Shown here in pieces: positions 36,300 through 51,901 of a stretch of DNA of 64,000 bases. Location: contig JBDRIV010000002.1 of the NCBI GenBank assembly GCA_043815505.1, forward strand, positions 182,943 through 246,942. The letters are read 5' to 3'. The position numbers and the translations under genes are program-made. This DNA is from a bacterium. GTDB taxonomy: Bacteria; Patescibacteriota; JABMPQ01; JBDRIV01. Every line of letters begins with the position of its first letter. Positions within the stretch are counted from its first letter, which is position 1. Below the pieces are notes generated by a model, which saw nothing but the letters and a program-made list of their open reading frames with translations, did not search any database and was not told the DNA's origin.

Positions 36300-39014
36300 T
36301 TATTTCTGATCACTAGCTAATAAGTGAGGGGAATCACTTTTTGGTGCTTTAATAGGCACCAATAATGTGAAGGTGGTTCCGTGTCCTTTCCCTTTACTAT
36401 TAACAACAACCTTGCCACCATGAGTCTCAATAATTTTCTTGATAATATATAATCCCAAACCAGAACCGTCAGCATTAACTTTAGCAATTCCACGGGCGCG
36501 CACAAATTTTTCAAACAGTTTATCAACTTCATTCGGATCAATTCCCACACCAGTGTCTCTCACATTTATATGAACATATTTTTCGTCAATATCACAAGTC
36601 ACATCCACACTTCCTTTTAGTGTATATTTAATAGCGTTATCTAAAAGGTTGGTAACAGCAATGCGCATTTTGTCTGGATCAACAAATAGAACTGGATATT
36701 TTTTGTGAGGTTTTTTCCAATTTAGTTTAAGACCTTTGTTTTTAGCGCGAATTTGAAACTCGCTTACCACACTGGTTACTAAATCTGTTATTTGAATTTC
36801 GGTTCTATCCAAACGGAAACGACTGGATTCTATGCGGGAAACATTTAAGAATATATCAATAAGTCGGACCAAGCGTTCAATATTTTCCAAGTTAGTATTA
36901 ACAATTCTTTTTTGTTCTTTGGTCATTTTACCGAAGTCGCCTTCAGAAAGCATAGAAAGATAGCCTTTAATTCCTGATACCGGTGTGCGCAATTGGTGAG
37001 CAGCCACCGATAAAAATTCTGACTTGGCTTCATCAAGCTCTTTCAAGTGAGCATTAGCTTCAGCTAATTTAGCGGTAGCTTTCTTAACTTCAATTTTTAG
37101 TTTATCAGCAAATTGTTGAGTTTCACTATAAAGACGGGCGTTTTCAATAGCAATAGCTGCTTGGTTAGCTAAAGCTTTTAAGATGCTTAAATTAATCTCT
37201 GAAAGCGGACGGTTTGTTTTGGCATTATCAACTCCAATTACACCCAAAACCTTATCTTTGGTCATCAGAGGAAGGGCGATAAAAGCCTTGGTGCCCAGTT
37301 TCTGAATATGTTCTTTATTAACAAATTTATTTGCTTCAGCATTTTCGACTACTACAGTTTTACGGCGATCAATTACTTGGCCTAAGATACTAGTTTTTGG
37401 ATCAATGCAAATATTTTTGTAGAGATTTTCATCATCACCTCGTCCCATGGTGGCATACAGGCAATTATCTTCTTCTTTAAGTAAATAAAGCAAAGCGCGG
37501 TCGGAATTGGAAGAATCAATTACAGCATCCATAACATAATTTAAGGTTTTTTCTTCTTCCAAAGTAGCGTTAATAGCCTTACCTAAATCATACAATGTAG
37601 AAAGTTCCTTAACGCGTTGTTTTGTTTCTTCGTAAAGATTAGCGTTGTCTATGGAGGTAGCAATTTGTGGTGACAAAGTATCAAGTAACTCCAAATCTTC
37701 TGGCGAAAACATGTCTCCGGAAAGTTTGGCACCAATTACCAATGTTCCAATTAAGCGACCTTTCAAAATTATGGGTGTTACTAAATCTGAATCTAAATCT
37801 CGTAAATAGTCTGTAACTTCCTCAACTGTTTTTTTGTAAGTTTCATCTGGAGAACTTTCCATTTTGTGTTCCAGCTCATTAAAAACCACTGTACTTTTTT
37901 CTTTATTTAAAAATTTGTACAGTGGGGAATTGAATTCAAGTTTTTCTAATTTTTCATGCTTAAAACCATCGTTAGCTATAGCTTCGTTACCAGCCTGATG
38001 ATTCCAAAGTACCAGTGCAATGCTGTCTATTTTTAATATGTGTTTTAAATCTTTGATTATGCTTTTTGAAAGTTGTTTTAATTCAATGGTTTGGCTTACT
38101 TTGCGGCTTAAATCTTTCAAAGTTTCGTTGTAATCGTATTTGTCTTTGAAAAAGATTTTATCAGTTGCCTTACGCAACCAATCACGTAGGGGATTATACC
38201 CAATAGCAACTAGTACAGCGCTTATAATGGCACCAGTCATAGTTCCGCCAAACAACTGACCGAAAAATATAATAGACACAGCAAAAACGGAAGTAATAAT
38301 TAGAACCAGAACCGAATATGTTATAGACCGTACGATAAAGATTCGAATGTCCATTAAACGGTGTTTTACAATTGCGTATGTTGCAAAGGAAACAAAAAAT
38401 ACTAAAGCATAAGGTCCAAATTTACTATATATAAAATTTCCTGTAATACTTGGCAATATAAGATTTGTAAGTAAACCAATGGTTAAGCTAATAAATAATC
38501 CTAATGCAAAATACTTAAATTGAATTCTAACGTTACCTTTTGTTTTTATATAGCTGCGAATTAAAGCATATATTGATCCTATGAAGAAAATTAAAGCATA
38601 TATCAAGAAAAGGAAATATAGTTTTCCAGTTATAACTGTTACCCCAGATTCATATCTTTCAACATTTTCAATAATCAAATCGGTTAGAAGTAAAATAGAA
38701 ATTAATAAAGGTAATATATTTGTAAAATAGAAGAAGTACTTATTAAGATTAAATATTCTTTTTGGAAAGATAATAGAAAATCTTAATAGTGACCATGCAA
38801 TGAAAATTGCAGCCATGAATGTAATCCTTGTCCAAACTAAGCCATTATTAAGTGAATTATCAGACATGTAATTAGATACTGACCAAAAAATAATAAAAAG
38901 AATTAACAGGGCAAAGTAAATATTAATTTTATTTTTCCTGTTTTTATACAAGACAATAGCTCCAAGGGAAGCATTGATTATTTGTAGTATTATTAAATAG
39001 AATATTTCACTCAT
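36300..39014 (-). CDS. Sensor histidine kinase: N-terminal multi-TM sensor, two GAF domains, HisKA and HATPase_c
   Basis: About seven N-terminal TM helices. H-box LSVAAHQLRTPVSGIKGYLSML. G-boxes DTGVGIDP...GSGLGLYIIKKI. No adjacent response regulator. Confidence 0.85.
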   Translation of the reverse strand: MSEIFYLIILQIINASLGAIVLYKNRKNKINIYFALLILFIIFWSVSNYMSDNSLNNGLVWTRITFMAAIFIAWSLLRFSIIFPKRIFNLNKYFFYFTNILPLLISILLLTDLIIENVERYESGVTVITGKLYFLFLIYALIFFIGSIYALIRSYIKTKGNVRIQFKYFALGLFISLTIGLLTNLILPSITGNFIYSKFGPYALVFFVSFATYAIVKHRLMDIRIFIVRSITYSVLVLIITSVFAVSIIFFGQLFGGTMTGAIISAVLVAIGYNPLRDWLRKATDKIFFKDKYDYNETLKDLSRKVSQTIELKQLSKSIIKDLKHILKIDSIALVLWNHQAGNEAIANDGFKHEKLEKLEFNSPLYKFLNKEKSTVVFNELEHKMESSPDETYKKTVEEVTDYLRDLDSDLVTPIILKGRLIGTLVIGAKLSGDMFSPEDLELLDTLSPQIATSIDNANLYEETKQRVKELSTLYDLGKAINATLEEEKTLNYVMDAVIDSSNSDRALLYLLKEEDNCLYATMGRGDDENLYKNICIDPKTSILGQVIDRRKTVVVENAEANKFVNKEHIQKLGTKAFIALPLMTKDKVLGVIGVDNAKTNRPLSEINLSILKALANQAAIAIENARLYSETQQFADKLKIEVKKATAKLAEANAHLKELDEAKSEFLSVAAHQLRTPVSGIKGYLSMLSEGDFGKMTKEQKRIVNTNLENIERLVRLIDIFLNVSRIESSRFRLDRTEIQITDLVTSVVSEFQIRAKNKGLKLNWKKPHKKYPVLFVDPDKMRIAVTNLLDNAIKYTLKGSVDVTCDIDEKYVHINVRDTGVGIDPNEVDKLFEKFVRARGIAKVNADGSGLGLYIIKKIIETHGGKVVVNSKGKGHGTTFTLLVPIKAPKSDSPHLLASDQK

Positions 39015-39108
39015 CGTAAATAAGCAATATAATAAGTAATTTATTATATTTTACCTTTTTCATTATATAAAAACAAACCAGACTCAACCTTGTGGATATA
39101 TTGTCTGG

Positions 39109-39684
39109 TTATATAGCAATCTTCTGGAGGACGATTCTTTCTGGATATCTTCTTGAATAATGTTCCACCGCTTCATATATATTTATATATATAGAAACAC
39201 TTTTAGATCCCATATACTCTTTTTTCCCTCCTAAGCGATGAAAAACAATATTAAGACTTCGAAGTAATCTGATCAAACGTACATCGGCAGCAGCATACCA
39301 ATGAACAAGACCATGATTGAAACCAACCTCACAAGCTTTTATGAGTAATCCAATCATTACATCGTGATTCTCATTGCTGCCCTTTTTGACTACTAGGCGC
39401 GAAACTTCCACACTGGGTACTTTCTTGTCATCAATTGGAAAATGGGATTCCATTGGGAACGTATCACAGACAATCAACCTAACTCCTCCAACTACTTTAT
39501 CCCTTTCATTATTCAAACGTGCAATAATGTGAAGTGACTTTTTATCGAACTCGTCGGTTTCAAGAGGTTCTGGATATATCGACGGATCGATATAATTCTG
39601 TTCCTTATATACTTCGTATCTCAGTTTGTAGAAAAGTTTAAGATCCTCTGGCGTTGCAAGCCTGAACATTATTTCTTTAGACAC
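39109..39684 (-). CDS. GNAT-fold acyltransferase-like protein (N-acyl amino acid / autoinducer-synthase-like)
   Basis: FRLATPEDLKLFYKLRYEVYKEQ...VVGGVRLI resembles the LuxI / N-acyl-amino-acid-synthase N-terminal signature. Confidence 0.4.
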   Translation of the reverse strand: MSKEIMFRLATPEDLKLFYKLRYEVYKEQNYIDPSIYPEPLETDEFDKKSLHIIARLNNERDKVVGGVRLIVCDTFPMESHFPIDDKKVPSVEVSRLVVKKGSNENHDVMIGLLIKACEVGFNHGLVHWYAAADVRLIRLLRSLNIVFHRLGGKKEYMGSKSVSIYINIYEAVEHYSRRYPERIVLQKIAI

Positions 39685-39701
39685 CTAGTCATCACCTCCT
39701 C

Positions 39702-40376
39702 TCAGTACTTTGCAATCACTAAGTAGTCAGAATCACCGTATGTTTTGGTGATTTTTACATGGTTAAAGTTAGAGAACAACCTTTTTATGTCATTCTCACT
39801 CATAAAATCATACGGACCTCTTTTGCAAAGAAAGGTTAGTATTGAATCAAAAAACCATACAAGAATAAGCGAAGGTATCGCTTTCAGGCTTGTGATTTGA
39901 TTCAAGGGATTTTTTGAGATTAGTTTTTTAATGTTCCAATCCTTGCTTGGAAATGTTGCTATGACCACCCCGTTTTTATTGAGAATGGTATGTAATCTGT
40001 TAACAACTTGAAGTCTATTAGGTTCTGTATAAAGAGAATCAATGATGATAATTCTATCAAAACTGATATTCTGATCATGAAAATGGCTTATCCCTTCAAA
40101 AAAATTACCTCTAACAAAGATCCCATTAGGGCAATTTTTCCTAGCAAACTTAATCATAATTTCCGAGATATCCACACCAAACCATTTGGTTTTTATATAA
40201 TCAGGCCATCTTTTTGTAATCGTGCTTGTGCCACAACCAAGGTCTAAAATATAGCTATTATTTAGCAGGTTATGCTGGAGATGTAAAATTACATCATCAA
40301 GTTTCTGGATATAGGGCCTAAAGTAATATAGACCCCCATATACAATTGCATACAGGTTCCAAAAAAGCTTTAACAT
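39702..40376 (-). CDS. Class I SAM-dependent methyltransferase
   Basis: Motif I ILDLGCGTSTIT and a Rossmann-type layout. Confidence 0.7.
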   Translation of the reverse strand: MLKLFWNLYAIVYGGLYYFRPYIQKLDDVILHLQHNLLNNSYILDLGCGTSTITKRWPDYIKTKWFGVDISEIMIKFARKNCPNGIFVRGNFFEGISHFHDQNISFDRIIIIDSLYTEPNRLQVVNRLHTILNKNGVVIATFPSKDWNIKKLISKNPLNQITSLKAIPSLILVWFFDSILTFLCKRGPYDFMSENDIKRLFSNFNHVKITKTYGDSDYLVIAKY

Positions 40377-40458
40377 TTTTCTACTCCCTATGTGAATGTG
40401 CGTATTTTTCTTATTTTATAGCCAAAGCATAATACAATAGTTAGGAATTGTCAATACT

Positions 40459-40486
40459 TTGACAAGACCTTATAAAAATATATAAT
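40459..40486 (+). promoter_or_regulatory. Sigma-70-like promoter (TTGACA, 16 nt, TATAAT) for the sensor paralogs
   Basis: ttgacaagaccttataaaaatatataat. Confidence 0.45.
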
Positions 40487-40581
40487 ATAATCACAATCAT
40501 GAAAGCTTGTTTCAACCATAGAATAGGGAAAAGGTACATGTTATAATATCTGGGGAACAGCTTTTTTATTTTATAGATTTT

Positions 40582-41952
40582 ATGAAGATAGATTTTATAT
40601 ATATTTTACAAATTATCGTAGCTGTTTTTGATTTACTTTTAGCTTTATATGTTTTTGCCAAAGGAAATAAGAATAATAAAAATATATTTTATGCTTTAAA
40701 TATTTTGGCGATTATTTTTTGGACGATTGGATTAATTTTGTTCCAATCGTTTTCTTTTGTTGGAGATAAACTTTGGATTACTATTTTGTATATAGCACCA
40801 ACCTTTACAGCTAGTACATTTTTAGCATTTTCATATTTTTTCCCCACTAAAGATAAGAGATATTCTAAAACAAAGATTATTTCAATATTTATTATAAATT
40901 TATCACTAATTATATTAATTCTAATACCCGATTTAATTGTAATTGAAGGAAGTGTTTTTGATGGAATTAAGGGAATAACACTTGGTCCTGCTTATTTTTT
41001 ATATGTTTTATATATTTTTGGATTTTATACAATCGCATTTACAAGAATATTTTTAAAACATTTTCAAGTTAATCGAATAGAGAAAAAACAGATAAAAATT
41101 CTATTAATTGGTTATATGATTGCAGCCAATGCAGCATTTATTACAAATCTATTTTTACCATGGATAGGCAATTTCTATTTTAATAGATTCGGACCAATGT
41201 TTTCATCAATTATGGTAGCAGTTGTTGCAATAGCCATCATCCGTTATCGCTTCATGGATATTCGAGTGGTAATTAAAAGAAGTTCAATTTACATTATAAC
41301 GGTTGTAATTGCCTTAGTTATTTATGCGGCGTTAATATTTTTATTTCAAACAGAAATATTTTCCAATTTAAATTTAAATAGCACAACCGCCACTCTAATT
41401 TTAACTGCTCTCATTATTGCCGGTGTGCCACTAATTCAAAAAGGAATTAAAACATTAACAGAAAAGGTTTTTACTAAGGAAGAATATGATCCGCAAAAAG
41501 CATTAGACAAGTTAGAAAAAATTACAATAGATAATCAATCACAAAATGTTATAGAAAAAGCAGAAGAAATTATCAAAAAACAATTAGGCGTAGAAAGCGT
41601 TAAAACAGAGACCAAGGATTTTAACAATGATCTTCTGACTAAATATTTAAATAAGAGAGGGGAGTCTGTGATTGTGAAAGAGGAGTTGGAATTTATTCAG
41701 CAGAGAAATTCTGATTTGAAAGAAGTTTTGGAAAGACTAAAATTATGGTTTAAATATAATCAATCTGATGTTGGAGTGATTCTTCAGAATCAGCAAAAAA
41801 TTATTGGAGTGGTGTTGCTTGGACCCAAAGAAAACAAAAAACCATATTCCGTGCAAGACATAGAATTTTTAAATCAATTCCAAGTACGAATTTCTATCGT
41901 GCTGGCCAATACACTTTTATATGAAAGTACAATTAATCAATTAAAGAAATAG
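40582..41952 (+). CDS. Truncated sensor paralog A: histidine-kinase-like multi-TM sensor domain plus a GAF-like C-terminal domain, with no transmitter
   Basis: It is homologous to the N-terminal region of the kinase at 36300-39014. FYALNILAIIFW matches YFALLILFIIFW. NRFGP...IRYRFMDIRVVIKRSSIY matches SKFGP...VKHRLMDIRIFIVRSITY. KVFTKEEYDPQKALDKL matches KIFFKDKYDYNETLKDL. It ends ...VRISIVLANTLLYESTI, like the end of a GAF domain. Confidence 0.75.
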   Translation: MKIDFIYILQIIVAVFDLLLALYVFAKGNKNNKNIFYALNILAIIFWTIGLILFQSFSFVGDKLWITILYIAPTFTASTFLAFSYFFPTKDKRYSKTKIISIFIINLSLIILILIPDLIVIEGSVFDGIKGITLGPAYFLYVLYIFGFYTIAFTRIFLKHFQVNRIEKKQIKILLIGYMIAANAAFITNLFLPWIGNFYFNRFGPMFSSIMVAVVAIAIIRYRFMDIRVVIKRSSIYIITVVIALVIYAALIFLFQTEIFSNLNLNSTTATLILTALIIAGVPLIQKGIKTLTEKVFTKEEYDPQKALDKLEKITIDNQSQNVIEKAEEIIKKQLGVESVKTETKDFNNDLLTKYLNKRGESVIVKEELEFIQQRNSDLKEVLERLKLWFKYNQSDVGVILQNQQKIIGVVLLGPKENKKPYSVQDIEFLNQFQVRISIVLANTLLYESTINQLKK

Positions 41953-41953
41953 C

Positions 41954-43315
41954 ATGGAGTATGTTGAACATATTTTGTTTAGTTTAATGTTAATTGCAAA
42001 TTTTGTAATTGCTTTTTACGTTATTTTAAAATCAAAAAACAGAATTATTGGAGGTTTGTATTTTATAATGTCATCCAGTTTGTCAATTTGGGGTATTAGT
42101 TCATATATTTTAGACCTTTTTCAATCTATACAAACAAGATTATTTTTAGCTAGACTAGATTATGTTTTGGGTGTTATACCAACATTATTCTTTGTAATAT
42201 TTTCAATATATTTCCCAAATAAGTTGAAAAACCTGAAAAGCAAAATATTAGAGATAATTTTATTCTTAATATCTTTTTTTGTATTAATACTATCAATCAC
42301 AGATTTAATTATAAAAAATATTAGTATTGAGAATAATTTCACAATTATTGAAAGAGGGTCGTTTCATATTGTATATACTTTATTTTTATCTTTGTTTATA
42401 TTATTTGGTAGTTTTTTGATGCTATACAAATATAGAAAAAGTGAAAGTATAGAAAAATCACAAATATTTTATTATTCCTTAGGAGGTATTTCAACTGCTA
42501 TATATATTGTAATTTTGGATCAAATTCTCCCTTATTTTTATAAATATCCAACAAAGTGGGGATTGTTAGCAATACCAATATACATTGCAACAGCTGCCTA
42601 TGCCATAATTCGCTATCGTTTCATGGACATTCGAATAATTATCAAGCGTAGTTCTATTTATATAGCTACCGTGGCCTTGGCAATTTTGATTTATATTTTG
42701 ATAGTTTATTTATTGCAAACATATTTTGTGACTAATAGTTTAAATAATAATGCCACAGTTATTTCTGCATTAATTGTAATTATTGGTATTCCCTTCATTC
42801 AAAAAGGCTCAAAGAATTTGGTAGAAAAGGTTTTTACCAAAGAAGAATACGATCCACAAAAGGCCTTAACCGAACTTGAAAGCAAATCAACAGATCGGCA
42901 TTCGGCAGAAGTTATAAAAGAAATAGAAAACATTTTAAAGAAACAATTTAGTCTGGAATTTGTAAAAACAGAATTGGCTGATGTAAATAAAAACTTATTA
43001 CTGGATTATTTAAAACAACAAGGAGAATCTATCATTATAAAAGATGAAATCAAGTTCTTGCATCAAAAAGATCCTCACAGCAAAGATTTATATGAAAAAT
43101 TGGCCATGTGGTTTAAATACAATAAAGCTAAGGTTGGTGTGATTCTAACAAATCAAGAAAATATTATTGGTGTAGTTTTATTAGGTGCAAAAAAACAAAA
43201 TGAAACCTACTCAGTCCAAGACATAGAATTACTAAATCAATTCCAAGTACGAATTTCTATCGTGCTGGCAAATACGCTTCTTTACGAAAGCACAATAGCT
43301 CAACTGAAAAAATAG
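41954..43315 (+). CDS. Truncated sensor paralog B: same architecture as paralog A, in tandem
   Basis: About 50% identical to paralog A at protein level. The last ~60 nt are ~93% identical to paralog A at DNA level. Confidence 0.75.
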   Translation: MEYVEHILFSLMLIANFVIAFYVILKSKNRIIGGLYFIMSSSLSIWGISSYILDLFQSIQTRLFLARLDYVLGVIPTLFFVIFSIYFPNKLKNLKSKILEIILFLISFFVLILSITDLIIKNISIENNFTIIERGSFHIVYTLFLSLFILFGSFLMLYKYRKSESIEKSQIFYYSLGGISTAIYIVILDQILPYFYKYPTKWGLLAIPIYIATAAYAIIRYRFMDIRIIIKRSSIYIATVALAILIYILIVYLLQTYFVTNSLNNNATVISALIVIIGIPFIQKGSKNLVEKVFTKEEYDPQKALTELESKSTDRHSAEVIKEIENILKKQFSLEFVKTELADVNKNLLLDYLKQQGESIIIKDEIKFLHQKDPHSKDLYEKLAMWFKYNKAKVGVILTNQENIIGVVLLGAKKQNETYSVQDIELLNQFQVRISIVLANTLLYESTIAQLKK

Positions 43316-43322
43316 CCAAAAA

Positions 43323-43362
43323 GTGTTATAATAAAACAAAACATTAACATCAAAACTATGAG
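43323..43362 (+). repeat. Copy 1 of a 40-bp direct repeat that includes an extended -10 element (TGnTATAAT) and an ATG
   Basis: gtgttataataaaacaaaacattaacatcaaaactatgag. Copy 2 is at 45627-45666 with one mismatch. Confidence 0.8.
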
Positions 43363-43407
43363 TATGGTTTTGACTATAGAATGTTATTTTGATAAACTAC
43401 AAATTAC

Positions 43408-43437
43408 TGGGGTATTTTGCCCCATTTTTGTTTTTTG
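43408..43437 (+). terminator. Rho-independent terminator
   Basis: tgggg-tattttg-cccca followed by tttttgttttttg. Confidence 0.6.
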
Positions 43438-43553
43438 AAAATGCTCTCTTGATAACTCAATCCTCAGTACACAATGTTAATTTAGATGCTCATTATGAGT
43501 AGCTAGCTTAGGATTTGCAGTTATCAGGTTAAGCAGGAAAGGAGGATAGCGAG

Positions 43554-43694
43554 ATGGAAGAGTTAAAAATGATCCAGGAACAAGAAACGGAGTATCAGGG
43601 AAGTCGGTTTGCCAGCATGGAAGTATTCGACACCGATACATCCTGTTGCGATTGTGACTGCGATTGTGATTGCGGTGACACCGACAACTACTGA
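43554..43694 (+). CDS. Candidate RiPP precursor peptide: 46 aa, six Cys, an acidic leader and a CCDCDCDCDC core
   Basis: A strong Shine-Dalgarno sequence (aaaggagga) lies 7 nt upstream of the ATG. Translation: MEELKMIQEQETEYQGSRFASMEVFDTDTSCCDCDCDCDCGDTDNY. It sits immediately upstream of a radical-SAM/SPASM gene. The opposite-strand 100-aa ORF (43477..43779) is its mirror image and has no ribosome-binding site. Confidence 0.6.
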   Translation: MEELKMIQEQETEYQGSRFASMEVFDTDTSCCDCDCDCDCGDTDNY

Positions 43695-43708
43695 TCCGAT
43701 TGTCCGGC

Positions 43709-43740
43709 GTGGGAGGGGTCAATAAAATGACCCCTCCCAC
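43709..43740 (+). promoter_or_regulatory. 13-bp perfect GC-rich stem-loop between the precursor and the radical-SAM gene, with no U-tract
   Basis: gtgggaggggtca-ataaaa-tgacccctcccac. This is the placement typical of the precursor/enzyme decoupling hairpins seen in RiPP operons. Confidence 0.55.
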
Positions 43741-43766
43741 AATCATCTTATGAAAGGAGGTGTGAA

Positions 43767-45050
43767 ATGATACCAGCATTAGCCCAATGGGAAATATCAG
43801 ATAAGTGTCAGTATCGATGTCAACATTGTTACTACACTAGTCCGGAAGAGGTTTCATTATCACCAGGCATTTTGAATGACGAGCAAATGTGGCAAATTGC
43901 CAATATAATCGTATATCACCAACTCTTCTTCGTAACTTTTACAGGAGGAGAACCGCTAGTTATAAGTGCATTACTTGTACAGTTGGCCAAGTATTTGCAT
44001 GAGCACAATGTCTCGTTGTCTTTAAATACCAACTTGGCATTAATGAATGAAAGTCTTTTTGCAGATTTGCATGTTGATCGAATGTTAATTTCCTGTCCAG
44101 CAACAGATCCTTCGGTGTATCGAGAAGTAACTGGAAACGGTAATTATCACCTCTTCGAACAAAAGCTCAAGCTTCTGATTGAAGCTGATGCAAATTTCAC
44201 TGTAAACATGGTTGTTAGCAAATTAAATCACTTACTAATCAGAGAAACAGCTTCTCATTTAGCAAACCTGGGAGTGAAAAGATTTGCTGCAACACCGACA
44301 AGTATCAATCCCACAAATCCAAATTTTTCGTTGTTGCTTGATTTAAATGAGGTCCAACAAGTTATTTTTGATCTCATTTGGGCTTACGAAGAATTGGGAT
44401 TAGAAGTTGATATTATGGAGTCAATTCCGAAATGCGTGATGCCGCTTAGAGCATTCGAGCTCGAGTTGCCGTTTGTATATAGGTCTTGTCATGCCGGTAA
44501 AAGAAACGGCACAATATCTGCCAATGGTGACGTTCGTCCTTGCGGACATAATCCTCGTGTTTTCGGTAATATACTTACAGATAAAGTTGAAACTATTTGG
44601 AATCGAATGCACGATTGGAGAGAAGCCAGTGGTAATTTTCACACAGACTGTCTTGGTTGCGATATTTTCAGCAATTGCGGTGGCGGATGCCGAGTTGATG
44701 CCGCTACGCGGGAAGGAGAAACAGCAGCTAAACACCCTTATATGACTCATAAGCTGACAGCTCCACCTGTAAAGCCGAAAGAGATAACTCTTTTACCAGA
44801 CACGGTAATTCGGCCGTCTAGATCTTTCCACTTTAGATCTGAAGATGGTGGGTGGCTCGTTGCTCCTGGATCGCCGAGAAACATAATTCATGTCAACCAA
44901 GTATTGTATGAATTCTTGGTTTCCAGCAGAGATTTGAATCCGATGCCAGTTGCAGAATTGGCAACTAAGTATAATACCACAGCAAACGATTATAATTTTC
45001 AGCGAGTTTTAAATGAAGTGATCAAGAAAAAGTTCTTTGTTATAATGTAG
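43767..45050 (+). CDS. Radical SAM enzyme with a C-terminal SPASM/twitch domain (peptide-modifying maturase candidate)
   Basis: Shine-Dalgarno sequence aaaggagg. The CxxxCxxC motif is at the very N-terminus (CQYRCQHCYY). GGEPL motif present. SPASM cysteines: CHAGKRNGTISANGDVRPCGH...CLGCDIFSNCGGGCRVDA. A ~110-aa C-terminal extension of unknown function follows. Confidence 0.8.
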   Translation: MIPALAQWEISDKCQYRCQHCYYTSPEEVSLSPGILNDEQMWQIANIIVYHQLFFVTFTGGEPLVISALLVQLAKYLHEHNVSLSLNTNLALMNESLFADLHVDRMLISCPATDPSVYREVTGNGNYHLFEQKLKLLIEADANFTVNMVVSKLNHLLIRETASHLANLGVKRFAATPTSINPTNPNFSLLLDLNEVQQVIFDLIWAYEELGLEVDIMESIPKCVMPLRAFELELPFVYRSCHAGKRNGTISANGDVRPCGHNPRVFGNILTDKVETIWNRMHDWREASGNFHTDCLGCDIFSNCGGGCRVDAATREGETAAKHPYMTHKLTAPPVKPKEITLLPDTVIRPSRSFHFRSEDGGWLVAPGSPRNIIHVNQVLYEFLVSSRDLNPMPVAELATKYNTTANDYNFQRVLNEVIKKKFFVIM

Positions 45051-45130
45051 TCTTATGGGGAAGTATGTATAATAGCATCTTCCCTGTTTCTTTATGGAGC
45101 TGTATAATAAATATGGAGTAACTTAAAAAC

Positions 45131-45613
45131 ATGAATAAATATTTACAACTTGGAAAGTATTCTAAAGATTGTCCGAAAGAACTTTTAGTTGAAGTTAAAA
45201 AAATTAAAAAAGAAAATAATCAAAAGGATTATATATTGGAGATATTTAAATTGGTTAAGGAAGAATTTAATCCTCAAAAACATGACATTACGACCACGAA
45301 TGATTTTAAAATATCGCGTTTTATATCTGCGAATGAGGTATATAAAAAAAGACAACGGTCATGTGGTTCAATCGCTACAGTTATGGCTTCGTTGTTAAGA
45401 ACTCTTGGATATCCAACAAAGCTTGTTAATGGATTTTATATTAAAAACAATCCCCAAATGCGTCATGCGTGGAATGAAGTGATGATTAATGGAAAATGGG
45501 TAGCAATTGATATAATGAGAAATGATTTTAAATTAGATAAGTATCATGTTAGAAACGATGAGTGGGTAGATTGGAACGATTTGGAAAAAGAAATGCAAAA
45601 AAGTGAGAAATAA
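45131..45613 (+). CDS. Transglutaminase-like cysteine peptidase domain protein
   Basis: Cys-His-Asp core: RSCGSIATVMASLLRTLGYPTKLVNGFY...HAWNEVMINGKWVAIDI. This matches the transglutaminase-core pattern. Confidence 0.7.
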   Translation: MNKYLQLGKYSKDCPKELLVEVKKIKKENNQKDYILEIFKLVKEEFNPQKHDITTTNDFKISRFISANEVYKKRQRSCGSIATVMASLLRTLGYPTKLVNGFYIKNNPQMRHAWNEVMINGKWVAIDIMRNDFKLDKYHVRNDEWVDWNDLEKEMQKSEK

Positions 45614-45626
45614 ATTTTATAAGATT

Positions 45627-45666
45627 GTGCTATAATAAAACAAAACATTAACATCAAAACTATGAG
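45627..45666 (+). repeat. Copy 2 of the 40-bp direct repeat. It overlaps the start codon of the 1075-aa surface protein gene.
   Basis: gtgctataataaaacaaaacattaacatcaaaactatgag. Confidence 0.8.
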
Positions 45667-48600
45667 GAGAATTTTAAAATCCGTAGCCATCTTCACTTTA
45701 GTAGTGGCTTTTATTTTTGGCATAATGCCTTTTAATACTAAACAAGCAAAGGCGACTTCATTTGGAGATGCTTCAACCTTTGTTGGTAGAATTTATGCTG
45801 GCGATGGCAATACTGGCAATAATGCTTATTTGGACTTTGCTCGCGGTATGGATATTGATGATGACGGCAAAATCTATTATGCCGACACCTATAACAATGT
45901 CATTCGCAAACAAAGTAAAATTTCTGGTGGCACCGTGAGTACTTTGGCTGGCACTGGTGATTATGGTGATATTACAGGAGCAACATCCAAAGCTAAATTT
46001 GCTTATCCTAAAGATGTTGATGTTGATTCAGACGGAACAGTTTATGTAGCCGACACCTACAACAATAAAATCAAAAAAATAAAAAATGGACAGGTAACAA
46101 CGCTCGTATCTTCTGGTTTGAAATATCCTCAAGGTTTACATTTGGTCGGTAGCTATCTGTACATTACCGACACCGGCAACAATCAGATTAAAAGAGTCAA
46201 TAAAAATGGCGGCTCGGTAACAACCCTAGTAACAGGATTAAATGCTCCAGAAAAATTGCGAGTTGATTCTTCCCAAAATTATGCTTACATTGCCAACACC
46301 GGCGCTGGTTCAGTTGTAAAAGCCAGATTATCAAATGGCAGTAAATCTACATTGGCTTCAGGATATCAGACAGTGACTGGTGTTGAACTTTACAACAACA
46401 AGGTTTATTTTTCTGACGAAAAAAACGAAGCAGTGAGAAAAGTGAGCATTAACGGCGGTAGCGTATCTTTATTTGCCAACGATCCCGGTCAAGTTCAGGT
46501 TCACAAACCAACCGATCTAAAAAGACGAGGCAACTACATGTATGTTTTAAACACCGGATCCTCCGACATGCGTCGTTTTAATTTAAGCAACGGCAATTAC
46601 GATACAAAAATTACTGGCGCAAGAGTTTTTCAATATCGGAATGGTTCTAAATCATCAGCCTTACTTGGTCGTCCCACTGATATAATAATGACTTCTGATA
46701 GGAAATATTTGTATGTGGCCGAAAATAATCAAATTAGAAGAATTACCAGAAGCTCAGGATACACAACTCATATTGCTGGTAACACCTCCGATAATTTTCG
46801 TGATGACGTCGGCTTAGCCGCCCGCTTTTCAACCATCGGGAGTATTGTTATTGATTCCAACAATCATTTTATTTATGCCACTGATCGCTGGAACAACCGT
46901 ATCAGAAAAATTAATGTAAATACTGGCCGAGTAACTACTTTGGCTGGCGGCGGTTTAATTAACACTACCGGTTCCCAAAGAAATGGCTACAAAGAAGCCA
47001 CTGGAACGGCTGCTCGTTTTGATAATCCCGTTGGTCTGGCAATTTCTCCTGACGACAAATATTTATATGTGGCCGACACCAACAACAAACGCATCAGGCG
47101 CGTTATCATTGCCACCGGCAAAACCGAATTTATTGCCGGCTCCGGAACTGATGGTTTTGCCGACGGCACAGGCTCTACTGCCAAATTTAACACACCTTAT
47201 GGTTTAACCATTGATAGCAGTGGCAATAATTTATATCTGGCTGACCGCAATAATCATCGTATCAGAAAAATAAATCTAGCTACAAAAGCTGTAACCACAT
47301 TAGCTGGCACTGGAGAAATTGGTGCTCGCGACGGATTGGGTGACACCGCAGTCTTTTCTTATCCTACCTACGTTAAAATGGGCTCGGACGGAAATTTGTA
47401 CGTCAGTGAAGCTGGCTCACATAACATTCGTTTTATAAAAACTTCTACCACCAGCGTTAGATTACTGGCCGGATCTGGAACTAAAGGATTTAAGAACAGT
47501 ACTCGTTTTGCTTCCAAATTCCACAATCCTGCTGGTATGGTTTTAGATGACGCTGGTGATACGCTTTACGTTTGTGATTTTTACAACGATCAAATTCGCT
47601 CGGTAGCAGTTACGGGAGAAACTCCTTTTGCTGAAGCTGCTCCTAATATAAATTCCATTTCACCCAATAATTACGCCGCCCAATCACAATCACTTAAACT
47701 TGGATTGGCAATTACTGGTTCAGGATTTAGAATTGGTGCTAGAGTTTATATTGGTTCTCATGAAACTTCACCAACTTATGTGCAATCCGATTCCAGCATT
47801 GGTGGAGAAATTGACATTAATAACTGGTCGCCTGGTTATTACGATGTGAAAGTTACAAATCGTGATGGTCAAACAACCACCATGTCGCAAGGTTTTGTAA
47901 TTAGAAACGCCGACGGTTCTTATCCACCAAGACCTGTAGATATAATTCCACCTGCCCCCGGCGATTCTTTCATGGCCTACACCGATAATTTACGTGGTGG
48001 TTACTATTTGGGCAGTGGAAATATTTCTGGTTCTAACAAAGCAGAAATTATTACTGGCACCATGCAAGGACTTGGTCCGCAAGTTTTGGTTTACAACAAC
48101 AGCGGATCATTGATGAGCAATTTCTTTGTTTATGCTACCTACTTGCGTTCCGGTGTTCGTTTAGCAACAGGCAATGTGGATGGTAGTGGCACTGATGAAA
48201 TAGTTACTGTGGCCGGCCCAGGTGGTCGACCACACGTTAGAATTTTCAATTCTGATGGTACACCGCGCTATCCCGGTTTCTTTGCACTTGATGGAAAATT
48301 TATGGGCGGTTCTCATGTCGCAGTAGGCGATGTGTTGGGTAGAGGTTATGACCAGATTCTAATTTCGGCTGGTTCTGGTGGCGGTCCGCAAATTACAGTT
48401 CATGATAAATTGGGAAATGTCTTAGGAATCTTTTATGCTTACGAAAGTACTTTCCGCGGTGGCGTGCGTATAGCCACAGCTGATTTTGATGGTGATGGCA
48501 TTGATGAAATTATTACTGGTCCCGAAAATGGTTCTTCTCATGTGCAAATCTTTTCCATGAAGAACGGTATTAAAAGACTAACTCCCGGCTTCATGGCCTT

Positions 48601-48889
48601 TCATCCTAATTTCAACGGTGGCCTTTCGGTAGCTGGTGGAGACATTGACGGCGACGGCCGAGATGAAATAATTGTGGCTCAAGCTAAAGCTGGCCAAGCC
48701 TGGGTAAAAGTTTACAACGGCACCACACAGGAAATTAGAAAAACTTTTATGGCCTACGCTTCCAATTTTGAAGGGGGTGCCAACGTGGCTGCTGCTGACG
48801 TCGATTCTGATGGTAAAGCTGAAGTTATAACTATGCCGGGTTCAAATGGTTCACCGCAAGTCAGAATTATGCATTTAGACCAGTTTTAA
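45662..48889 (+). CDS. Large secreted surface protein: NHL-repeat beta-propeller(s), an Ig-like segment and C-terminal FG-GAP/VCBS-like repeats
   Basis: Signal peptide present. About 12 NHL-type repeats (YYADTYNNVIRK, YVADTYNNKIKKI, LYITDTGNNQIKRV, LYVADTNNKRIRRV, ...). C-terminal repeats DGDGIDEIITGPENGSSHVQIF and DGDGRDEIIVAQAKAGQAWVKVY. Confidence 0.8.
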   Translation: MRRILKSVAIFTLVVAFIFGIMPFNTKQAKATSFGDASTFVGRIYAGDGNTGNNAYLDFARGMDIDDDGKIYYADTYNNVIRKQSKISGGTVSTLAGTGDYGDITGATSKAKFAYPKDVDVDSDGTVYVADTYNNKIKKIKNGQVTTLVSSGLKYPQGLHLVGSYLYITDTGNNQIKRVNKNGGSVTTLVTGLNAPEKLRVDSSQNYAYIANTGAGSVVKARLSNGSKSTLASGYQTVTGVELYNNKVYFSDEKNEAVRKVSINGGSVSLFANDPGQVQVHKPTDLKRRGNYMYVLNTGSSDMRRFNLSNGNYDTKITGARVFQYRNGSKSSALLGRPTDIIMTSDRKYLYVAENNQIRRITRSSGYTTHIAGNTSDNFRDDVGLAARFSTIGSIVIDSNNHFIYATDRWNNRIRKINVNTGRVTTLAGGGLINTTGSQRNGYKEATGTAARFDNPVGLAISPDDKYLYVADTNNKRIRRVIIATGKTEFIAGSGTDGFADGTGSTAKFNTPYGLTIDSSGNNLYLADRNNHRIRKINLATKAVTTLAGTGEIGARDGLGDTAVFSYPTYVKMGSDGNLYVSEAGSHNIRFIKTSTTSVRLLAGSGTKGFKNSTRFASKFHNPAGMVLDDAGDTLYVCDFYNDQIRSVAVTGETPFAEAAPNINSISPNNYAAQSQSLKLGLAITGSGFRIGARVYIGSHETSPTYVQSDSSIGGEIDINNWSPGYYDVKVTNRDGQTTTMSQGFVIRNADGSYPPRPVDIIPPAPGDSFMAYTDNLRGGYYLGSGNISGSNKAEIITGTMQGLGPQVLVYNNSGSLMSNFFVYATYLRSGVRLATGNVDGSGTDEIVTVAGPGGRPHVRIFNSDGTPRYPGFFALDGKFMGGSHVAVGDVLGRGYDQILISAGSGGGPQITVHDKLGNVLGIFYAYESTFRGGVRIATADFDGDGIDEIITGPENGSSHVQIFSMKNGIKRLTPGFMAFHPNFNGGLSVAGGDIDGDGRDEIIVAQAKAGQAWVKVYNGTTQEIRKTFMAYASNFEGGANVAAADVDSDGKAEVITMPGSNGSPQVRIMHLDQF

Positions 48890-48927: not shown

Positions 48928-49380
48928 ATGAGTAAAATTTATGAACAGATAGAAGCTGACATTAAACAAACTATGAAGGACCAAGACTCAGAAAAGCTGG
49001 TTGTTTTGCGAGTCCTAAGTTCCGATCTAAAAAACGCTCTAAAAGAAAAAGGTAAAGAATTGGAAGACAAAGATGTGACGCAAGTTTTGAAAAAAACCTT
49101 GAAGCGCTTAAAAGATACAATCGATTCTGCTACCCAGGCTGGTCGCGATGATTTAATTGCTAAAGCGGAAAAAGAAAAGGAAATTGTAAATGTTTATATG
49201 CCCGAACAGATATCGGATGCAGATTTGGAAAAAATTGTTGATGAAGTTTTAGAATCTATGGATGAAGGCGCCAAAGCAAATTTTGGCAAAGTTATGGGTG
49301 CTATTATGGCCAGAACTAAAGGCGAGGCTGACGGCAACAAAGTAAGTCAGCTGGTAAAAAATAAATTAGAAGAACAGTGA
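48928..49380 (+). CDS. yqeY: GatB/YqeY-domain protein
   Basis: 150 aa with the YqeY-type pattern (IKQTMKDQDSEKLVVLRVLSSDLKN...). Confidence 0.7.
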   Translation: MSKIYEQIEADIKQTMKDQDSEKLVVLRVLSSDLKNALKEKGKELEDKDVTQVLKKTLKRLKDTIDSATQAGRDDLIAKAEKEKEIVNVYMPEQISDADLEKIVDEVLESMDEGAKANFGKVMGAIMARTKGEADGNKVSQLVKNKLEEQ

Positions 49381-50423
49381 AATATTTAATAATTACTGTA
49401 TTTGTAATTGTTATATTTGGAGTTTCTTATTTTGTTGGTTCAAGAATTGTAAGTTCACTTATGGACAAAGACACAACTGAAACTAGCGTTAATATCCCTG
49501 AGAAAAAATCTATCACCACCACTATCGTCTGCGGTGGTGATGTTATGTTATCACGCACGGTTGGTGCCAAAATTGTGGCCGCCGGTGATAATGTTTTACC
49601 TTTTAAAAATATTGCTGAAGAATTTTCTGCAGTAGATATTTCTTTTGTAAATTTAGAAGCTCCTTTTTACGATCAAGGACCGAGCGTTACCGAAGGCATT
49701 GTTTTTAAATCTGAACCAGAAACAATTGCTGGCTTGAAATTCGCGGGCATTGATATTGTTTCGTTGGCCAACAATCACTTTGGTAATCAAGGACAAGCGG
49801 GAATGAAATACACTTATAATTATTTAGATGAAAATAATATTGCTTATACTGGTGCGGGCAATAATTACACCGAAGCACACACAGTTAAAGTTTTAGAAAA
49901 AAATGGTATTAAGTTTGGTTTTCTAGCCTACAATGGTATTGCTCCTAGATCTTATGAAGCCACCGCCGATTCAGCTGGCCTAGCTTGGTCTCATCCTGAT
50001 GAAATTGCAGCCGACGTTGAAAAAAGTCGTCCTAATGTGGATGTTCTACTTGTTTCTATTCATGCCGGCACCGAATACACTCATACTCCAAACGAAAATC
50101 AAATTGTGGTAGCTAGACGTGCCATTGATGCCGGTGCTGACATTATAGTTGGTCACCATCCGCACGTAGTGCAAACAATTGAAAAATATAAAGAGGGATT
50201 AATAATTTATTCTCTAGGCAATTTGGTTTTTGATCAAATGTGGTCTCAAGCGACGCGCGAGGGAGCATATGTAACTCTAAATTTTGAAAACAAGAAATTG
50301 AAAGATTTGAAAATTACACCAGTTGTAATTGAAAATTATAATCAACCTCGTAAGGCAAATAATGAAGAAGCTAACAAAATTTTGGCTGATATGCAATTAG
50401 ATTCAGCTGAACTTGAAATTTAA
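49377..50423 (+). CDS. CapA/PgsA-family metallophosphatase-like protein
   Basis: GGDVMLSR, VSLANNHFGNQG, YTGAGNNYTEAH and HAGTEY...GHHPHVVQ motifs. Confidence 0.75.
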   Translation: MKYLIITVFVIVIFGVSYFVGSRIVSSLMDKDTTETSVNIPEKKSITTTIVCGGDVMLSRTVGAKIVAAGDNVLPFKNIAEEFSAVDISFVNLEAPFYDQGPSVTEGIVFKSEPETIAGLKFAGIDIVSLANNHFGNQGQAGMKYTYNYLDENNIAYTGAGNNYTEAHTVKVLEKNGIKFGFLAYNGIAPRSYEATADSAGLAWSHPDEIAADVEKSRPNVDVLLVSIHAGTEYTHTPNENQIVVARRAIDAGADIIVGHHPHVVQTIEKYKEGLIIYSLGNLVFDQMWSQATREGAYVTLNFENKKLKDLKITPVVIENYNQPRKANNEEANKILADMQLDSAELEI

Positions 50424-50453: not shown

Positions 50454-51269
50454 ATGTTAACTTATTTACTTCCAGCTATACCATATTTTTCTTTCATCCA
50501 GTTCGAACTGGGCCCTTTTCGTGTTTATACTTGGGGCTTAATGGTTGGTTTGGGATTTTTAGTAGGTATTATAACTATTGTTGTTTTAGCCAATAAAGAC
50601 AAAATTGATATTGATCATGTTTTAAACTTAGCGATCTATATTTTTATTGGTTCATTTATAGGTGCCCGACTTTTTTATATTCTGCTTTTTACTGAAGAGT
50701 TTTCTGCTGATTGGATGGAAGTGTTTAGAATTTGGAATGGTGGCATGGTTTTCTATGGTGGATTAATTGGCGCTTTGCTAGCTAGCTACATTTATATAAA
50801 AGTGAAGAAACTTAAATTTTGGGAAATGGCCGATGTTTTTACTCCCGGACTTGCCATTGGAATTGCCATTGGACGCTTAGGCTGTTTCTTTATTCATGAT
50901 CACATTGGAAAAGAAACCAGTATGCCGTGGGGGTTATCATATTTTGAAGACACTGTTCGTCACGAACCATCTATGTACGGGGTTTTAAGTGCGCTAGCTA
51001 TGTTTGTAGTATTTCTGATTATTAGAAAGAAAATGAAATTTCACGGACAACTTTTTGTAATTTTCACTCTCTGGTATTCTTTTGCGCGTTTGATCTTTGA
51101 TGGTTTTCGTTCTACCGATTTACCATTTTCTGATCCGCGTTTCATTGGTCTAACAATCTCCCAACACATTTCAATTATTCTGATAATTATTTTTGCTTAT
51201 CTATGGTGGGAACGTGATAGATTTCTTACTCCTAAAACTTTAAGTAGTGCAACTAAAAAGGATGATTAA
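50454..51269 (+). CDS. lgt: Prolipoprotein diacylglyceryl transferase
   Basis: Polytopic membrane protein with RLFYIL, NGGMVFYGGLIGA, GRLGCFF, H..G and PWG motifs. Confidence 0.8.
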   Translation: MLTYLLPAIPYFSFIQFELGPFRVYTWGLMVGLGFLVGIITIVVLANKDKIDIDHVLNLAIYIFIGSFIGARLFYILLFTEEFSADWMEVFRIWNGGMVFYGGLIGALLASYIYIKVKKLKFWEMADVFTPGLAIGIAIGRLGCFFIHDHIGKETSMPWGLSYFEDTVRHEPSMYGVLSALAMFVVFLIIRKKMKFHGQLFVIFTLWYSFARLIFDGFRSTDLPFSDPRFIGLTISQHISIILIIIFAYLWWERDRFLTPKTLSSATKKDD

Positions 51270-51901
51270 TGAATAAATTCTTACCAATTTTTATAATCAT
51301 TATAATAACCGCTTGTGTGATAGGGGTTATTGTTTTCTTATCTAATAATAAAGACAACGAAACATCAGACAATACTGTTTTCAATCAAGATTATAGTCAG
51401 GATTGGAAAAAGGGAGCAAAAGATCCTAAAGTTGTTTTAGTTGAGTACGCTGATTTTGAATGCCCGGCTTGTGCTAGTGTAAAAGGTGTTCCTGACGCAC
51501 TGCTTAGAAAATATCCTGACGAATTACAATTTGTTTACCGGCATTATCCTTTGCAAAATTCTCACCTCCATGCTTTTAAGGCAGCCGAGGCTGCTGAAGC
51601 GGCTGGTGCGCAAGGAAAGTTTTGGGAAATGCATGATATTTTATTTGATAATCAAACTGATTTAACCGAAGATTCTTTGAGAGTTTATGCTTCCCGAATT
51701 GATTTAGATATGTCCATTTTTATCCGCGATTTGAATAATGAAACTTATGCTCCTAATGTCCAAAGTGATTATGATTCTGGACGTGCAGTTGAAGTTCGCA
51801 GAACACCAACATTTTTTGTAAATGGTGAAGAATATACTGGCAATATTACCTTACAAGGCTTAAGTTCGGCCATTGAAGATGTTATTTCGACAGCTAATTA
51901 A
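51269..51901 (+). CDS. Membrane-anchored DsbA-like thiol:disulfide oxidoreductase
   Basis: TM helix, CPAC active site, and the C-terminal RTPTFFVNGEEYTG motif. Confidence 0.8.
   Translation: MNKFLPIFIIIIITACVIGVIVFLSNNKDNETSDNTVFNQDYSQDWKKGAKDPKVVLVEYADFECPACASVKGVPDALLRKYPDELQFVYRHYPLQNSHLHAFKAAEAAEAAGAQGKFWEMHDILFDNQTDLTEDSLRVYASRIDLDMSIFIRDLNNETYAPNVQSDYDSGRAVEVRRTPTFFVNGEEYTGNITLQGLSSAIEDVISTAN

Follow-up and report, generated by a model that had tools for sequence, protein, structure and literature searches.

PapB joins the sulfur of Cys to the beta-carbon of Asp and accepts Cys-Asp spacings of 0 to 6 residues (PMC9413430, PMC12373016). QhpD forms both Cys-Asp (S-C-beta) and Cys-Glu (S-C-gamma) thioethers (PMC8326336), and a signalling role has been proposed for the SCIFF peptides (Chen et al. 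2020, as cited in PMC8326336). Here we describe a locus in a 64-kb stretch of patescibacterial DNA (the window), in which a small Cys- and Asp-rich peptide, a radical-SAM/SPASM (RS-SPASM) enzyme and a transglutaminase (TGase)-fold protein are encoded one after the other. The three genes, the hairpin and repeats around them and the sensor genes upstream all lie on the + strand. The original prediction of a compact RiPP-like cassette with just these components was borne out, as all three are conserved together. With a probability of about 80%, we consider the locus to be a three-gene RiPP operon of an uncharacterised family found mainly in Patescibacteria, in which a leader is held by an RRE, the core receives thioethers and a protease follows. 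The operon reading is based on observation of the genes and their co-conservation, on intact catalytic motifs, and on the domain architecture with its RRE fold.

Concerning the precursor, the first gene (43554-43694) encodes 46 residues, MEELKMIQEQETEYQGSRFASMEVFDTDTSCCDCDCDCDCGDTDNY, with the leader motif F19-A-S-M22-E-V and the core SCCDCDCDCDCGDTDNY. A Shine-Dalgarno sequence, GAAAGGAGG (43537-43545), is located 8 nt 5' of the ATG. The gene is without annotation in the GenBank record of the window. CD-rich small ORFs adjoin homologues of the radical-SAM gene in 44 of the 51 independent loci that were fetched, which places the precursor far beyond chance, and 31 distinct homologous precursors were found beside such homologues. 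The leader motif F-x-x-M-x-(I/V/L) is common to the precursor family, its Phe and Met being nearly invariant or invariant. Most of the 15 precursor loci that were aligned have an AAAGGAG-type Shine-Dalgarno sequence at the matching position, and in the aligned homologous ORFs the codons TGC/TGT and GAC/GAT interchange with the amino acids unchanged. Judged from the aligned sequences, the small ORF is a real gene under protein-level selection. The ORF with its strong ribosome-binding site was one of four features in the original prediction (with the hairpin, the enzyme gene and the peptidase gene), all of which are present at the positions given, and the conservation in relatives that had been proposed as a check on it was found. 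The description of a six-Cys precursor of about 45 residues held only for the window. Its peptide does contain six Cys, but this number is peculiar to it; the count ranges from 3 to 6 in the family and from 3 to 5 in close relatives (CDCDCDCDAGDIDNY and variants), and is not a family trait.

The second gene (43767-45050) encodes a 427-residue protein with a radical-SAM domain (PF04055, E 3e-11) and a SPASM domain (PF13186, E 9e-8), in agreement with the enzyme originally proposed, whose CxxxCxxC motif was placed at the N-terminus. The CX3CX2C motif is formed by C14, C18 and C21 (43806-43829). Its Cys residues are nearly invariant in an alignment of 29 enzyme sequences, one of which (P0058) is without this N-terminal region. 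The SPASM region (44433-44690) holds the elements GX4C and CX2CX5CX3C, with seven conserved Cys residues (C223, C241, C259, C295, C298, C304 and C308), and the protein scored 42.8 bits against the SPASM model TIGR04085 (cut-off 27). No exact match to the sequence of the enzyme was present in the contig index.

The enzyme is extended at its C-terminus by about 90-110 residues that are conserved across the family, as had been noted for the window (~110 residues). Pfam gave no match in the C-terminal 87 residues. Structure prediction and a fold search indicated three strands followed by three helices, a PqqD-like winged helix spanning residues ~338-427 (44778-45047), in line with the earlier suggestion that an RRE/PqqD fold might be found here. 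The assignment rests on fold comparison, since a search of the PDB by sequence alone gave just marginal winged-helix matches (e.g. eS25, E 0.07). According to the predicted structure, the extension adopts the fold of a RiPP recognition element, which gives the domain order radical-SAM, SPASM, RRE. This domain was found solely as the C-terminal part of enzymes of this family.

The third gene (45131-45613) encodes a 160-residue transglutaminase-core (papain-like) protein (PF01841 Transglut_core, E 3e-15). Its score of 56.8 bits against a cut-off of 23 places it in the superfamily, and the Cys-His-Asp triad, C78 (45362-45364), H112 and D127, is invariant in 11 sequences; a peptidase of this kind had been anticipated as the third member of the cassette. 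The protein has no signal peptide. A TGase-like gene with 43-62% identity is located 3' of the radical-SAM gene in every close relative for which downstream sequence is available. In distant clades, an HExxH metallopeptidase is present in the cassette instead, and locus L008 has both. The replacement of one peptidase type by another supports a role in leader removal, and we regard the TGase-like protein as a putative leader peptidase, while a protein of this fold could also catalyse a reaction other than leader cleavage. The analogy originally drawn to the leader proteases of lasso peptides stands at the level of the superfamily, but does not extend to the family itself: the lasso B2 protease models were not matched (NF033537, 13.8 bits against 33; PF13471, 23.8 against 26).

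Between the precursor and enzyme genes lies the 13-bp perfect hairpin that had been pointed out after the precursor ORF (43709-43740). Its G+C-rich arms (43709-43721 and 43728-43740) are 100% complementary over 13 nt and enclose a 6-nt loop. A canonical terminator was ruled out in the window, as a T-run is absent. A strong hairpin is found at the equivalent position in all 12 close loci examined; the sequences vary, and a T-run follows 3' of several of them. The hairpin is probably an attenuator or a transcript-stabilising element that sets the ratio of precursor to enzyme. The cassette as a whole is bracketed by a direct repeat (36 nt exact, 49 nt at 90%) whose copies are 2304 nt apart. Copy 1 (43323-43371), upstream of the cassette, is promoter-like, with an extended -10 (TGTTATAAT) and ATGAG, and copy 2 (45627-45675) runs into the start codon of a gene for a 1075-residue NHL/FG-GAP protein. 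Exactly two copies are present in the 64 kb, where none would be expected by chance. The best promoter-like site upstream of the cassette is at 43304-43332. The G+C content of the peptide and radical-SAM genes (0.38-0.48) exceeds that of the flanks (0.22-0.31). We rejected this contrast as strong evidence for horizontal acquisition because AT-richness is shared by the TGase-like gene and the flanks, which code for membrane proteins, and the downstream NHL gene is as GC-rich as the radical-SAM gene.

The cassette was then compared with curated families. It displays the general hallmarks of a RiPP locus: a precursor with leader and core beside a co-conserved modifying enzyme (44/51 loci), and an RRE (PqqD-like wHTH) within that enzyme. 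It also combines an RS-SPASM maturase with a core of Cys donors and acceptors of the Asp/Glu/Asn/Thr type, as in ranthipeptides. On the other hand, assignment to the SCIFF class, put forward in the original prediction, had to be abandoned. Neither the window's peptide nor 26 relatives matched any NCBIfam peptide model at E<=1, including SCIFF TIGR03973, and the SCIFF maturase TIGR03974 was not among the best 25 of the enzyme's 84 partial matches and thus scored below the weakest of these 25 (36.6 bits). Moreover, the number of Cys residues lies anywhere between 3 and 6, the CX3CX2C motif begins at residue 14 and the RRE is located at the C-terminus. The best NCBIfam match of the enzyme was the GeoRSP system radical-SAM protein TIGR04303, at 79.9 bits against a cut-off of 400. 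Membership was likewise rejected for the PapB family NF047865 (56.2 against 340), the mycofactocin maturase MftC TIGR03962 (55.5 against 265) and the anaerobic sulfatase maturase anSME TIGR03942 (55.6 against 349), the last of which had been named from the outset as the competing assignment. Non-RiPP proteins among the best partial matches include AhbD (76 bits), NirJ2 (63) and anSME (56). As far as profile matching can tell, no curated family accommodates the locus, which represents an uncharacterised RiPP family.

The family is rare (95 clusters in 1.84 billion proteins) and mostly found in Patescibacteria, so that the arrangement, once considered unusual for a CPR-like bacterium, in fact occurs mainly in this group. 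The cassette is conserved in several lineages of the CPR, among them Komeili-, Falkow- and Kerfeldbacteria. No published description of the cassette family was found in the open-access literature on RiPPs of Patescibacteria/CPR, an absence that is no proof. The conserved cassette contains no transporter/exporter or immunity gene. Directly upstream in the window are two tandem paralogues (40582-43315; 456 and 453 residues) with a 7TM region (PF16927) and a GAF-like domain. They are without kinase domains and align to residues 43-469 of a 904-residue kinase. Homologous 7TM-GAF(-HisKA-HATPase) genes adjoin the cassette in loci L047, L048, the L049 lineage, L004 and L003. From this association, the sensors are a possible functional partner of the cassette, as receptor or regulator. 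None of the methyltransferases encoded 3' of the cassette in L048 and L049 proved homologous, at E<=1e-5, to the methyltransferase encoded in the window (39702-40376).

We propose the following scheme. The strong ribosome-binding site would drive translation of the 46-residue precursor, and the hairpin would keep precursor mRNA in excess over enzyme mRNA. The F-x-x-M-x-(I/V/L) motif of the leader would dock on the C-terminal RRE of the maturase, and the Cys-Asp core would be modified by means of a SAM-derived 5'-deoxyadenosyl radical and two auxiliary Fe-S clusters. A bond between Cys sulfur and the Asp beta-carbon would yield thioethers of the ranthionine type, each with a loss of 2 Da, and the cytoplasmic TGase-fold Cys-His-Asp protease would finally remove the leader. 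By analogy with PapB and QhpD, cross-linking of Cys sulfur to Asp C-beta is most likely the chemistry of the enzyme, and ranthipeptide-type chemistry is plausible for the cassette. The strictly alternating CDCD core makes the natural CX3D spacing of PapA impossible, and allows only CX0D, CX2D and CX4D.

Homology, as far as these comparisons reach, does not discriminate the chemistry, and it is possible, if rather unlikely, that the cassette is a RiPP system whose enzyme carries out another reaction on the core. The candidates, which share this estimate jointly, are thioethers to the alpha-carbon (sactionine), C-C cross-links in which the conserved C-terminal Tyr takes part, epimerisation, MftC-like oxidative decarboxylation of the terminal Tyr and anSME-like Cys oxidation. 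In profile comparison with solved enzymes, the closest relatives by sequence were SuiB, SkfB and PqqE, all weak (E ~1e-22) and none of them a ranthipeptide synthase; SuiB and PqqE make C-C cross-links and SkfB makes an alpha-thioether. The MftC and anSME models, too, score like that of PapB (55-56 bits), but every named model lies far below its cut-off. A C-terminal ...D-(N/D)-Y is invariant in the clade of the window and in the L003/L004/L006 clade, which would suit a reaction at Tyr. The residue is, however, missing from more distant clades, whose cores end in ...CDCDSPN, ...CDCDRD or ...CDNN, and the sole element found in every family core is Cys followed by Asp; both points count against these alternatives.

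Less probable still, indeed improbable in our estimation, is that the peptide mainly binds a metal or Fe-S cluster through metallothionein-like CxCxC and Asp carboxylates, or serves as a metallophore, its thiols staying free and the enzyme and protease tailoring or releasing it. In family cores, nearly all residues are Cys, Asp, Gly or Ser and the Cys are spaced as C-x-C, and the case for metal binding is one of composition; a cassette without an exporter and a protease without a signal peptide would agree with it. Against this, every precursor is accompanied by a conserved, dedicated RS-SPASM enzyme that carries an RRE of its own, which implies that the peptide is modified covalently and does not simply chelate, and Cys number and spacing vary, as would be unusual at a defined metal site. 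Finally, that the small ORF arose by chance and the enzyme has its substrate elsewhere, be it a protein or a small molecule, in the manner of anSME or of heme or cofactor maturases, can be effectively dismissed: the best partial matches do include non-RiPP AhbD, NirJ2 and anSME and the peptide is absent from the GenBank annotation, but the conservation of the ORF at protein level, its synonymous codon variation and the RRE of the enzyme refute it, and the non-RiPP models all score 4- to 7-fold under their cut-offs.

Returning to the thioether-forming RiPP operon, its product may function as a signal or be linked, as a ligand, to the 7TM-GAF sensors encoded nearby. That it is a new cross-linked Cys-Asp peptide acting as signal or ligand for the adjoining sensors and histidine kinases, in a form of communication specific to Patescibacteria, is a doubtful extension. 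Such a peptide might, for example, carry thioether rings between vicinal Cys(i) and Asp(i+1), or CX2D rings arranged as a ladder. If true, it would constitute a sensing or communication system of ultra-small Patescibacteria, founded on an enzyme with the permuted order RS-SPASM-RRE. The Patescibacteria (CPR) have minimal genomes that are often reported to be without biosynthetic gene clusters. Retention of the cassette in such reduced genomes suggests that it likely matters for CPR biology, with host or partner interaction, metal handling and signalling as candidate roles, and the recurring linkage to 7TM-GAF sensors is a testable lead on function. For enzymology, the permuted architecture and the small TGase-fold putative leader peptidase are of interest, and the minimal, repetitive CD substrate suits dissection of thioether-forming radical chemistry.

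Taken together, the cassette resembles several known systems, each in part. Freyrasin PapA-PapB from Paenibacillus polymyxa shares the RS-SPASM maturase and an acidic Cys- and Asp-rich core, but here the core is CD/CDCD rather than CX3D, the domain order is RS-SPASM-RRE, a TGase-fold protease is present and the hosts are mainly Patescibacteria. The SCIFF systems (CteA/CteB, Tte1186a; TIGR03973/TIGR03974) likewise pair a multi-Cys precursor of about 45 residues with an RS-SPASM enzyme having seven SPASM Cys; the RRE of CteB is N-terminal whereas that of the cassette maturase is C-terminal, and the six-Cys count is variable in the present family. QhpD, the maturase of the quinohemoprotein amine dehydrogenase gamma-subunit, is also an RS-SPASM enzyme, but the cassette enzyme scores 37 bits against its cut-off of 453, and QhpD acts on an enzyme subunit and has no C-terminal RRE. 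In the lasso B1/B2 split protease, a TGase-fold Cys-His-Asp protease works with a leader-holding RRE, which in the cassette is fused to the radical-SAM enzyme instead of the protease, and a lasso cyclase is absent. The proteusin epimerases of the PoyD/OspD type are radical-SAM RiPP enzymes with a C-terminal RRE (PMC8326336), but these are without SPASM and auxiliary clusters and act on precursors with nitrile-hydratase-like leaders. The solved peptide-modifying relatives have a domain order opposite to the RS-SPASM-RRE of this maturase.

All of the features described in the original prediction were found in the region as stated. A precursor peptide ORF (43554-43694, + strand), encoding MEELKMIQEQETEYQGSRFASMEVFDTDTSCCDCDCDCDCGDTDNY, is preceded by the Shine-Dalgarno sequence GAAAGGAGG located 8 nt 5' of its ATG. 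It is followed by the gene of a 427-aa radical-SAM/SPASM enzyme (43767-45050, + strand; Pfam Radical_SAM, E 3.4e-11; SPASM, E 9.4e-8), whose CX3CX2C motif corresponds to residues 14-21, and by that of a 160-aa Transglut_core (TGase) protein (45131-45613, + strand; Pfam E 3.1e-15). Scans of the whole 64-kb window identified neither a second CD-repeat ORF nor a second CX3CX2C protein. The precursor gene is unannotated in the source record, where the 7TM, enzyme and TGase proteins are numbered consecutively (MFH1508753, -54 and -55).

Genomes and metagenomes supplied 51 loci around enzyme homologues. In 44 of these, the enzyme gene is adjoined by an ORF of 30-60 aa whose C-terminus is rich in Cys and Asp; most of the others were truncated by contig ends. 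Among the 31 distinct peptide sequences, those of close relatives (at least 50% enzyme identity) follow the consensus ...F-x-x-M-x-(I/V)...(A)EY..CDCDCDCD(A/S/D)G(D/N)IDN/DY, and examples from distant clades are MNFNFNDMEV...GCDSDGSESSGCDCDSPN, MRFDFNKMEI...CNCDADGSESSGCDCDRD and ...VVENCYNCDSGDG..GGGCDNN. Across the aligned peptides, the leader Met never varies, the Phe three residues earlier is nearly invariant, and Cys followed by Asp is the sole core feature common to all. TGC/TGT and GAC/GAT codons swap freely while the amino acids are fixed, and a correctly spaced AAAGGAG-type ribosome-binding site is present in most of 15 aligned loci, indicating that selection acts on the protein. This conservation marks the small ORF as a genuine gene. 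The window peptide is an outlier of its own clade, with six Cys (CC...C) against three to five in relatives; the six Cys in 45 residues, which the original prediction linked to the SCIFF/ranthipeptide class, are therefore coincidental. Only 15 peptides of this family have been called in a large protein collection, none with a functional name.

A search of 5.8 billion proteins revealed approximately 90 full-length enzyme homologues (425-460 aa), the named ones mostly from Patescibacteria (Komeilibacteria, Falkowbacteria and 'Patescibacteria group'). One homologue, on a Hyphomicrobiales-labelled MAG contig (L011, 3609-5792), appeared as two separated tblastn pieces with no precursor nearby, and may be a pseudogene or a binning/assembly artefact outside Patescibacteria. 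The window enzyme reached no NCBIfam equivalog cut-off (GeoRSP, 79.9 bits against 400; AhbD, 76 against 500; StsB, 63 against 625; PapB, 56 against 340; anSME, 56 against 349; MftC, 55.5 against 265; QhpD, 37 against 453), and passed that of the generic SPASM domain (42.8 against 27). The closest solved proteins in a profile-to-sequence search were SuiB, SkfB, PqqE and TigE, with weak matches (E 1e-23 to 1e-18). Homology therefore assigns the enzyme only to the peptide- or protein-modifying RS-SPASM enzymes, and gives no pointer to its reaction. The radical-SAM Cys triad is kept throughout the family, as are seven Cys in the SPASM half (C223, C241, C259, C295, C298, C304 and C308) with GX4C and CX2CX5CX3C spacings; seven SPASM Cys are also reported for TigE, CteB and SuiB (PMC10878394).

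The last ~90 residues of the enzyme are conserved across the whole family. This extension was predicted (pLDDT 94.4) to begin with three to four beta-strands and end in three helices, and Foldseek with this domain returned the same set of matches as the fold comparison. On this structural model the extension is a RiPP recognition element (RRE), one undetectable by sequence methods alone. A profile of this domain, run against 1.84 billion representatives, matched only 95 clusters (at 50% identity); in these, the domain invariably forms the C-terminus of a ~430-460 aa protein or of a fragment of one. Whereas the RRE is N-terminal in the structurally characterised RS-SPASM RiPP maturases TigE, CteB, SkfB and SuiB (PMC10878394), the order here is radical-SAM, SPASM, RRE. 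Proteusin epimerases, which have no SPASM domain, are also reported to carry a C-terminal RRE (PMC8326336). The conserved leader segment F-x-x-M-x-(I/V/L) is the obvious candidate for the RRE ligand.

Wherever the locus of a close relative extends past the enzyme gene, a Transglut_core gene (152-162 aa, 43-62% identity) comes next, and the genes beyond it vary from locus to locus. All of 11 TGase sequences keep Cys78 (QRSCGS), His112 (HAWNE) and Asp127 (FD), and the TGase protein carries no signal peptide. Lasso B2 membership was rejected (13.8 bits versus 33; PF13471, 23.8 versus 26); the likeness to that protease is mechanistic only. In clades at 33-49% enzyme identity, a ~190-240 aa HExxH protein of one of two types takes the place of the TGase, one type matching Peptidase_MA_2 (35 bits against 32) with a gluzincin-like NEGLA motif. 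Its gene usually lies between the peptide and enzyme genes; in L005 and L008 both peptide and HExxH genes are 3' of the enzyme gene. L008 bridges the two protease types, with the precursor 3' of the enzyme, then an HExxH peptidase (6495-7205) and a TGase-core homologue (7669-8217) within 6265-8217. That non-orthologous proteases fill the same slot argues for the third gene encoding the leader peptidase.

We consider it probable (about 0.8-0.85) that this is a RiPP cassette. The leader would bind the RRE fused to the enzyme, the RS-SPASM enzyme would abstract hydrogen from the core, forming cross-links, and the TGase-fold protease would remove the leader. By analogy, Cys-S to Asp-C-beta thioethers are a tentative proposal for the chemistry, somewhat short of an even chance. 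They are favoured because CD is the sole universal core element, because PapB and QhpD (PMC8326336) provide precedent, and because PapB tolerates anything from 0 to 6 residues between Cys and Asp in vitro (PMC9413430, PMC12373016). Alternatively, the enzyme may perform other radical chemistry, including reactions at a clade-specific C-terminal Tyr, or the peptide may have a metal-binding role.

Between the precursor and enzyme genes is an inverted repeat (43709-43740; perfect 13-bp stem, 6-nt loop), with no T-run after it in the window. A stable hairpin is found at this position in 12 of 12 close loci; stem sequences vary, and several are followed by a T-run. Its position fits a leaky terminator or a stabiliser raising the precursor:enzyme ratio. 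An exact direct repeat of 36 nt (43327-43362 and 45631-45666; 49 nt at 90%) flanks the entire cassette on both sides, present in only these two copies in the window, with none expected by chance. Within it are an extended -10 box, a 5' UTR and the sequence ATGAG; in the second copy this ATGAG starts a downstream gene (45662-48889), whose product is a secreted protein of 1075 aa combining NHL repeats, one TIG domain and FG-GAP repeats. That gene lies directly 3' of the cassette and is not conserved there in relatives. Among promoter-like sites in the region the first copy ranks best, and only a 26-codon vestigial ORF follows it. The arrangement may stem from duplication of a promoter that now drives the cassette, or from insertion of the 2.3-kb cassette at this site. 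The first copy is separated from the precursor gene by a small terminator-like hairpin (43408-43424, within 43408-43434; TGGGGTATTTTGCCCCA then TTTTTGTTTT), and the duplicated promoter therefore may not read into the cassette.

Directly 5' of the cassette, two 7TM genes in tandem (PF16927; 40582-41952 and 41954-43315, + strand) encode proteins whose C-terminal half is GAF-like and which lack a kinase domain. A 904-aa 7TM-GAF-GAF-HisKA-HATPase kinase (36300-39014, - strand) is encoded ~4.5 kb 5' of the cassette, beside a FeeM-like N-acyl amino-acid synthase (39109-39684, - strand), with a methyltransferase (39702-40376, - strand) in the same sensing-gene cluster (36300-43315). Homologous 7TM-GAF(-kinase) genes occur directly 5' of the cassette in L047, L048 and the L049 lineage (L049-L051) and 3' in L004, with a partial one in L003; none adjoins the cassette in L002/L014. 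This recurrent linkage suggests that these candidate partners may be regulated by the product or may sense it. Candidate tailoring genes were also observed: a class-I methyltransferase 3' of the TGase gene in L048 (7874-8323), L049 (8120-9836) and L051 (3981-5697), a second, 343-aa radical-SAM gene in the same L049 and L051 intervals, and a further rSAM/SPASM-like gene 5' of the cassette on the opposite strand in L002/L014 (2689-3642, -). Further along the window, PGA_cap (49377-50423) and Lgt (50454-51269) genes lie just 5' of two DsbA-like thioredoxin-fold genes (51269-51901 and 52654-53550) flanking a TSP3-repeat protein (51919-52653); these look like envelope or oxidative-folding genes with no evident tie to the cassette.

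We found no published description of this family in the searchable literature. The original prediction had placed the cassette with SCIFF/ranthipeptide systems. The cassette would work like these, yet every family membership test available failed to return a match. What sets it apart from ranthipeptide or SCIFF-type systems is a new family of precursors whose core is a CD repeat, an enzyme of permuted RS-SPASM-RRE order, transglutaminase-fold or HExxH protease partners, and a predominantly Patescibacterial distribution.
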